A model generated the notes under the pieces. That model saw only the letters and a program-made list of their open reading frames with translations, searched no databases and was not told the DNA's origin. This document shows, in pieces, positions 23,971 to 24,232 of a stretch of 61,078 nucleotides of DNA. The stretch lies in the IMG/VR virus record IMGVR_UViG_3300027718_000001, positions 1 to 61,078 of that record; one strand, 5' to 3'. The stretch's first letter is position 1, and each line of letters begins with the position of its first letter. Made by a program: the position numbers and the translations under genes. Source of the stretch: a virus.

Positions 23971-24232
23971 AGACTTAGCGGTTCAGCCCCTTTATCCAGT
24001 GATGGGTATCGAAAACCTCTCTAATTCGGTGAAACTCCTAACGTATAAAGACGAGGACAATACCGAGCGAAGCCTGAAAGGGAACGTGTAACGACTATTA
24101 TGTAGGGTGTAAGCACACTCGAAACGGGAGGCATCTTTTTTAAGAGATGAAGATATAGTCTATTCTTGTTAGAAATAACAAGCAGTTCATAAGAGAACGG
24201 GCTAGGATTAGCGCTCCTAGTTGAATGTAAAG
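23971..24232 (+). ncRNA. Group I self-splicing intron, td-like, no internal ORF (262 nt)
   Basis: 5-prime splice site after U (tgggt|a). Terminal G (aaag|t). R-like acgactat at 24091-98 pairs with S-like aagatatagtct at 24150-61 (gactat/atagtc). actcgaaacg at 24117-26, then P8- and P9-like hairpins. Excision restores the reading frame. Confidence 0.8.

Follow-up and report, generated by a model that had tools for sequence, protein, structure and literature searches.

Nucleotides 23971-24232 (+ strand) of a 61,078-nucleotide viral DNA (IMG/VR record IMGVR_UViG_3300027718_000001, analysed over its whole length and called the window below) are very probably a compact group I intron of the phage-type subgroup IA, without an open reading frame (ORF) of its own, that lies in the cell wall hydrolase gene of a conjugation module and is spliced out to leave one protein. 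The ribozyme itself belongs to a well-known class and is ordinary within it; what is unusual is the host gene. An ORF-less group I intron had been proposed at this place from the sequence alone (the original prediction), and an Rfam scan of the whole window upholds that proposal: RF00028, the group I intron family, matches nucleotides 23961-24182 with 85.3 bits (E = 2.5e-20; the gathering threshold is 50) in an alignment over model positions 1-253, which is the full model. RF00028 is matched once only in the 61 kb and accounts for one of the two Rfam matches that reach gathering level there.

The 5′ splice site lies after U23970, which in the Rfam alignment forms a wobble pair with G23986 in the paired region P1, with a GGG/CCC pairing alongside. 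The 3′ splice site, after the terminal G24232 (omega-G), is set by a frame that needs a length of 1 mod 3, by the G at 24232 and by the gapless alignment of the spliced protein. Both sites are exactly those originally proposed, and the 262 nt between them (1 mod 3) come out in frame. As it stands in the DNA, the exon-1 frame (ORF 23633-24091) reads ...GHTQFMPKTW and then runs through 40 intron codons to a stop, and the remainder of the hydrolase follows in a second frame that ends at 24995; excision joins 23633-23970 to 24233-24995 in an uninterrupted frame of 366 codons. The insertion point falls after the second base of a valine codon within the SLT (lytic transglycosylase) domain. The predicted ligated junction is ACATGGGT joined to TGGTTGGTC in the window (TGGTTGG after the junction) and ...AAAACATGGGT joined to AGGTTGGTCATATCC in Priestia megaterium carriers of the intron. 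Across the KTWV/GW junction the conceptual spliced protein aligns without a gap to WP_234943156 (KTWVGW in both, 58% identity overall), a "bifunctional lytic transglycosylase/C40 family peptidase" of P. megaterium plasmid pPmC-129-6, whose intron-less target site reads ...TTCATGTCAAAAACATGGGTAGGGTGGGGATATCC.... A protein insertion at the intron site was looked for in homologues, and none was present there.

Orthologous introns at the same site

Orthologues were found by protein search with the truncated exon-1 ORF and its intron-encoded tail, and the homologues that end in the same intron-derived peptide (VDLTVQPLYPVMGIENLSNSVKLL... or VNLTV followed by a stop) are mostly named P. megaterium. 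The same intron occupies the same codon position in a complete 100-kb P. megaterium plasmid (NZ_CP071471, L002) and the same site in at least seven NCBI draft genomes (L006-L011 and L013), in L012, a Logan contig of 63.8 kb from a sister element, in Bacillus sp. RC (L017) and in two further metagenome contigs (L022 and L023). Seven ORF-less orthologous copies score 82-85 bits with RF00028, and every copy is preceded by ...TGGGT and ends in a G before N-GGN-TGG. Intron-less alleles are annotated as a single coding sequence in six other Priestia plasmids, so that intron-plus and intron-minus alleles coexist among the plasmids of this genus. An exact-match scan of a genome collection for the invariant P3-P5 core returned Bacillus sp. 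RC alone, where gene and site are the same, and a junction-specific scan of metagenomes returned only two more contigs; with so few matches, the lineage looks narrow and confined to Priestia/Bacillus. Four IMG/VR contigs that share the exact 29-nt P3-P5 core (L018-L021) were considered as further copies and set aside, since their P1/P2 differs, an ORF starts in their P6 region and the host gene is another one.

Two side observations concern the carrier plasmids. In the region 1446-4277 of the P. megaterium H2 plasmid NZ_CP071471 there is also a 2555-nt group II intron, which begins GTGCG, contains a reverse transcriptase/maturase ORF (2074-3897) and an RF00029 match (3904-4000), and ends exactly 20 nt short of the 5′ splice site of the group I intron; the order in this gene is exon, group II intron, 20-nt micro-exon (TTCATGGTAAAAACATGGGT), group I intron, exon. 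In addition, MOB-suite (via PLSDB) calls both NZ_CP071471 (L002/L024-L025) and NZ_CP069403 (L001) non-mobilizable despite their annotated type IV secretion system (T4SS), coupling-protein and replication-relaxation genes.

The interrupted gene and the conservation of its second exon

The spliced protein has the Pfam domains SLT (residues 67-113), SLT_2 (141-184) and NLPC_P60 (252-352), preceded by a hydrophobic stretch, ILIGACLAFGLLFFFFFAA, at residues 15-33. Its C-terminal domain matches the catalytic domain of Bacillus subtilis CwlO (PDB 8wt3) with E = 2e-49, and weaker PDB matches are the Tn916-like hydrolases 4hpe and 9ubf. This arrangement, a glycosidase and an NlpC/P60 domain behind an N-terminal membrane segment, fits a secreted peptidoglycan hydrolase of the CwlT / TcpG / PrgK / Tn916 Orf14 type. 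The gene sits in a conjugation cluster, directly 3′ of TrsD/TraC-like and VirB4-like genes (the latter matches the NCBIfam VirB4-like CD1110 family with E = 2e-82, a score under the curated cut-off); the region 10 kb upstream has genes for a coupling protein, a TrbL_4 protein and a weak MobP3-like relaxase, and RepA_N and ParA are encoded downstream. The Priestia orthologues are likewise flanked by annotated T4SS genes. Domain architecture and gene context support the label of a T4SS hydrolase, and a two-domain SLT plus NlpC/P60 enzyme of this kind is what had been predicted; its gene is translationally coupled to that of a VirB4-like ATPase in a Gram-positive conjugation module. A separate feature of this locus is a match to RF01691 ("Bacillus-plasmid RNA") at 25029-25098 (+), 34 nt past the hydrolase stop (44.5 bits, threshold 31), which recurs at the matching relative place in L012 (5395-5465).

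Exon 2 is present at full length, in the frame that splicing predicts, in all eight intron-bearing alleles (8/8). It is under purifying selection: the ratio of non-synonymous to synonymous substitution rates (dN/dS) is 0.18 for the window against L012 (dS 0.70), 0.11 for L013 against L006 and 0.03 for L006 against L017. The 12 codons immediately 3′ of the splice site are invariant as protein and vary as codons (TCA/TCT, CCT/CCA/CCC, ACT/ACA/ACG, CGT/AGG/AGA and TTA/CTT/CTG). The start that gene callers choose for the downstream part, ATG 24306, has no ribosome-binding site and is replaced by GTT in the Priestia alleles. Exon 2 is thus conserved in the frame predicted by splicing, the codon at 24306 lacks a ribosome-binding site and the true start has a GGAGG; only a joining of the exons as RNA would lead one to expect this pattern, and we infer with good support that the hydrolase transcript is spliced.

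Secondary structure and covariation

The strings on which the original prediction was built all stand where it had placed them: gccc at 23986-89, aacctctcta at 24014-23, acgactat at 24091-98, actcgaaacg at 24117-26, catct/agatg at 24132-49 and aagatatagtct at 24150-61. Its two 3′ hairpins, 24165-82 and 24202-20, are also there, together with a third at 24185-98 that it had not mentioned. We wrote out the structure from P1 to P9.2, including the pseudoknot formed by P7, and counted 70 base pairs on eight distinct intron variants (Table 1). Standard pairing is found in 96% of the cells. Changes on both sides occur in 13 of the 70 pairs, as compared to 5.2 +/- 1.5 in shuffles (the observed value was reached in 0 of 500), and sliding the 3′ partners by 1-3 columns leaves only 0-1 pairs with changes on both sides. 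The covarying helices are P1, P2, the P5 extension, the hairpin at the P7.1/7.2 position, P8, P9, P9.1 and P9.2. The strands of P3, P4 and P7 are invariant over the eight variants, the core helices P3-P8 follow in canonical order with P7 crossing P3, and the U.G pair at the 5′ splice site is present in 8/8. P1 to P9.2 account for all 262 nt, with no extra sequence past P9.2, and the centroid fold of the single sequence recovers P2-P9.2.

Table 1. Features of the intron, its host gene and the surrounding replicon (window coordinates).
Feature	Position	Strand	Remarks
VirB4-like conjugal-transfer ATPase gene	21567-23636	+	stop overlaps hydrolase start (ATGA); Pfam P-loop_TraG/DUF87/AAA_10
Ribosome-binding site GGAGG	23619-23623	+	9 nt upstream of ATG 23633; read directly
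Exon 1	23633-23970	+	N-terminal hydrophobic segment and first SLT half; ends ...GHTQFMPKTW + GT
P1 hairpin	23965-23991	+	5′ strand 23965-73, internal guide strand 23983-91; Rfam alignment
P1 pair	23972/23984		G-C to A-U in two variants; covariation
P10 (short)	UCA 23983-85 with exon-2 UGG 24233-35	+	pairing possible; read from the sequence
P2	23994-24007	+	5 bp, GUGA loop; one double, one single compensatory change
P3 5′ strand	24016-24021	+	partner 24126-24131; Rfam; invariant, 100% paired in eight variants
P4	24026-31/24061-66	+	Rfam alignment; centroid fold
P5	24036-39/24054-57	+	Rfam alignment; centroid fold
P5 extension	24042-44/24051-53	+	one compensatory pair; centroid fold
P6	24067-24087	+	inner helix CCU-GAAA-GGG; replaced wholesale by other self-complementary sequences in L012 and L013; alignments
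First exon-1-frame stop in intron (TAA)	24089-24091	+	ORF 23633-24091
P7 5′ strand GACUAU	24093-24098	+	partner AUAGUC 24155-24160; six pairs, invariant in eight variants; pseudoknot with P3
Single hairpin at P7.1/P7.2 position	24105-24120	+	one double, one single compensatory change
P3 3′ strand	24126-24131	+	Rfam alignment; covariation table
P8 hairpin	24132-24149	+	pair 24134/24147 seen as U-A, A-U, G-U
J8/7 (AAGAU) and P7 3′ strand (AUAGUC)	24150-24160	+	Rfam alignment; covariation table
P9	24165-24182	+	7 bp, GAAA loop; compensatory changes in 4/7 pairs
P9.1 hairpin	24185-24198	+	compensatory changes in 2/4 pairs
P9.2 hairpin	24202-24220	+	six pairs: two double, two single changes
Omega-G	24232	+	G directly before N-GGN-TGG in all eight orthologous copies
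Exon 2, stop included	24233-24995	+	rest of SLT and NlpC/P60 (CwlO-like) endopeptidase domain
GH25 endolysin	1286		phage side
TrbL_4	10142-10999		plasmid/conjugation side
Coupling protein	11102-13336		plasmid/conjugation side
Relaxase, weak MobP3-type	13608-14279		plasmid/conjugation side
RepA_N	26548-27891		plasmid side
ParA	28608-29486		plasmid side
dUTPase	29904		phage side
YqaJ and RecT	34334-36156		phage side
TerL	40434		phage side
Portal/MuF	41769		phage side
Capsid	46100		phage side
Tail tube	49473		phage side
Tape measure	52225-56181	+	own C-terminal SLT domain, residues 1121-1200; no intron
Dit	56182		phage side

Alternative explanations

Several observations weigh against a functional intron at this site. 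The sample behind the covariation analysis is small (eight sequences, five of them closely related), and the count of compensatory changes is support and would not be proof on its own. The predicted folding energy is no better than that of shuffled sequence (z = -1.08) and hence uninformative. P1 has two mismatches beside the core GGGU/GCCC pairing, and P10 amounts to only 2-3 bp. Finally, ribosomes translating exon 1 would meet no stop until 40 codons into the intron, beyond P1-P6, and could disturb its folding; in L012 and L013 the stop is already reached after 5 intron codons.

With the mismatches in P1, the lack of a homing endonuclease in the window copy and a gene that is in fragments or unannotated in the NCBI and JGI annotation (unannotated in NZ_CP071471), one might suppose that the intron is dead, and that a decaying hydrolase pseudogene persists because the insertion is recent. 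We regard this as very unlikely: synonymous divergence between intron-bearing alleles has reached dS 0.4-0.7 with exon 2 still full length in all eight and under purifying selection, and the helices have been kept by compensatory changes around invariant core strands in P3, P4 and P7. That the locus makes an N-terminal SLT fragment and, from ATG 24306, a C-terminal fragment as separate proteins, with the RNA structure put to some other use, is what the 152-aa and 229-aa ORFs of the gene callers would suggest, and it is hardly credible. Apart from the properties of codon 24306 given above, the 25 codons that lead from the 3′ splice site to that position are conserved as protein, the C-terminal fragment would have no membrane or secretion segment and half an SLT fold, and the insert bears every hallmark of a group I intron.

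A different matter is whether a splicing-competent intron doubles as a switch, such that splicing efficiency (responding to temperature, GTP or coupling to translation) would gate production of the hydrolase and with it transfer. Relatives of this hydrolase in other Gram-positive systems are needed for mating, and the open exon-1 frame across P1-P6 would couple folding to translation. There is also a precedent, in that PMC7293003 describes the group II intron Ll.LtrB, in the relaxase gene of pRS01, as a sensor of conjugation. We nevertheless think a switch rather unlikely here, as the sequence holds nothing that separates regulated from constitutive splicing, and the intron-less alleles common in sister plasmids make the intron dispensable. 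The reading with which we proceed is that of a subgroup IA intron that splices to restore one hydrolase.

Mobility and probable lateral spread

One of the draft genomes (L013, P. megaterium GCA_029845455.1, 4402-5338) has a longer form of the intron, 937 nt, in which 681 nt are inserted between the P7 5′ strand (ACGACUA), which they follow directly, and the hairpin at the P7.1/P7.2 position. The insert encodes an intact 204-aa ORF of the LAGLIDADG_2 family (E = 1.5e-29) with 2320 relatives, the closest about 70% identical; the exact protein occurs only in L013. The window intron holds no endonuclease gene and fails as a mobile intron by its own ORF. From these sequences the lineage is or was probably mobile, with a window copy that is not autonomous; against mobility it must be said that only one endonuclease-bearing copy was found and that its enzyme is putative.

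Window-type alleles (the window and L012) and megaterium-type alleles (L006, L013 and L017) are 83-86% identical in the intron as against only 59-69% in the exons, where synonymous sites are saturated, which argues that the intron is younger than the separation of the two lineages of the host gene. These identities would fit lateral transfer by homing with a later loss of the endonuclease gene. Part of the intron's conservation is explained by constraint on the ribozyme, but that of its peripheral helices is not. Two phage genes were considered as the source of the intron at the SLT site and rejected. The SLT domain of the window's own tape-measure protein has no similarity to the target motif, and the related intron in a B. 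thuringiensis tape-measure gene is inserted outside any SLT domain.

Relationship to known introns

The closest relative by BLAST, with 78% identity over 87% of the window intron, is the peptidoglycan-hydrolase intron of Staphylococcus phage StB12. It likewise interrupts a wall-hydrolase gene, but the host domain is CHAP there and SLT here, the insertion site differs, the StB12 intron has a hairpin after P7 for which the window intron has no counterpart, and its replicon is a phage. The lysK intron of Staphylococcus phage K/812 has the P7′-P9 core in common with the window intron. After StB12 come introns of Vibrio and Pseudomonas phages and then those of B. thuringiensis phage-plasmids, which are about 72% identical over 83% of the window intron and have the same helix order, P1-P9.2; the B. 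thuringiensis copy that we examined (L003) lies in an unannotated gap at the location of the tape-measure gene. Group I introns have been described in tape-measure, terminase and tail-tube genes of B. cereus-group prophages, including prophages on plasmids pBWB401 and pBWB404 (Tourasse and Kolsto 2008, PMC2504315). Like the window intron, they are mostly ORF-less, are inserted in frame into protein-coding genes on mobile elements of Bacillaceae and are shared by unrelated replicons; they differ from it in occupying phage structural genes rather than the hydrolase gene of a conjugation module.

The original prediction had called the intron td-like and likened it to IA2 introns. The layout is IA-like in having P2, P9.1, P9.2 and inserted sequence between P7 and P3′, and the overall subgroup IA layout, the conserved AAGAUAUAGUC and the P9 core are shared with the td and nrdB (IA2) introns of T4/RB3. 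BLAST similarity to T-even introns is confined to a core stretch of 62-112 nt in the RB3/RB5 nrdB intron (73-81% identity), with no td among the matches listed, and in place of the P7.1 and P7.2 of IA2 introns the window intron has one hairpin (24105-20), at a point where additional sequence is present in StB12 and L013. The description "td-like" thus seems loosely right, as a fair family resemblance and not as a tested membership in IA2. The td intron carries the GIY-YIG enzyme I-TevI in P6, whereas the ORF in L013 encodes a putative LAGLIDADG enzyme and follows P7.

Beyond the phages, a functional parallel is Ll.LtrB, in the relaxase gene of the Lactococcus conjugative plasmid pRS01; it too is a self-splicing intron in a conjugation gene, where, according to PMC7293003, splicing is a precondition for transfer. 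It belongs to the other ribozyme class, however, and spreads by reverse transcriptase-dependent retrohoming, as opposed to the DNA homing proposed for the window lineage. IStrons, chimeras of a group I intron and an IS200/605 element, have an IA-type ribozyme and a few copies on plasmids (PMC4227781). An IStron was rejected as an identity for the window intron: the 262 nt contain no ORF, IS component or transposase, and the insertion is allele-specific and not multi-copy.

The replicon

The window is a complete JGI contig (Ga0268255_10000139) with an exact terminal overlap of 127 nt, which gives a circle of about 60,951 bp. From its gene content the replicon looks like a phage-plasmid with a conjugation module and a full siphovirus gene set (Table 1). 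The original prediction had the conjugation module right, but a plain conjugative element this is not, as the 61-kb circle also has the siphovirus genes. In the 100-kb P. megaterium plasmid NZ_CP071471 a conjugation cluster is present and no phage structural genes are annotated. A further feature of the window, just 5′ of the terminase, is a homologue of a TET-associated glycosyltransferase (TAGT; 39148-39888, +) that adjoins a gene with a ParB_N domain (38492-39148, +); this may point to hypermodification of phage DNA.

A model for splicing and spread

In the model that follows, we infer the chemistry of splicing from established knowledge of the group I family, and infer likewise the timing of splicing and the homing. 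The hydrolase gene would be co-transcribed with the upstream VirB4-like gene, and the intron RNA would fold into P1-P9.2. P7 is the guanosine-binding helix in the established architecture of group I introns; a free guanosine bound there would attack the bond after U23970, offered by P1 as the U.G wobble with G23986. The 3′ OH of exon 1 freed in this way would then attack the bond after the terminal G24232, aided by the short P10, and ligation of ...ACA TGG GT to T GGT TGG... would create the message for a single 366-aa enzyme. As for its history, the intron may have spread by endonuclease-driven homing into intron-less alleles of the conserved site, and the window copy would since have lost the endonuclease gene and now be inherited passively with the replicon.

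Implications

A 2008 survey (PMC2504315) and a 2012 commentary (PMC3429520) state that bacterial group I introns occur on plasmids only within prophages, with none in a true plasmid gene. Group II introns, by contrast, are common on plasmids. An earlier paper (PMC1459170) mentions "a group I intron" on pXO1, in conflict with the later survey, and this is probably a slip for group II. Our literature searches, with most subscription journals outside their coverage, found no conjugation gene for which a group I intron had already been reported, and with coverage incomplete in this way priority cannot be claimed. The lineage described here is a counter-example to the prophage-only statement, as it occupies a conserved site in a hydrolase gene, resides on Priestia plasmids without annotated phage genes and includes one copy with an endonuclease.

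There is a practical side to this, in that annotation pipelines split or drop the hydrolase gene and MOB-suite calls a plasmid of this kind non-mobilizable. The lineage also offers a tractable system, since intron-plus, intron-minus and endonuclease-plus alleles are found in cultured P. megaterium strains, where homing between plasmids that share a cell or conjugate is open to test; GCA_002566985.1, GCA_036224185.1 and strain H2 are examples of cultured carriers. The hybrid of phage and conjugation replicon seen in the window suggests a route by which phage introns could reach plasmids. A broader interpretation, which we put forward tentatively and would not quite bet on, is that this would be the first documented case of a group I intron lineage homing into a genuine plasmid conjugation gene, that such introns may pass from the phage pool to plasmids by way of combined phage and conjugation replicons like the window, and that splicing would then be an obligatory, and possibly tunable, step before assembly of the mating pore.

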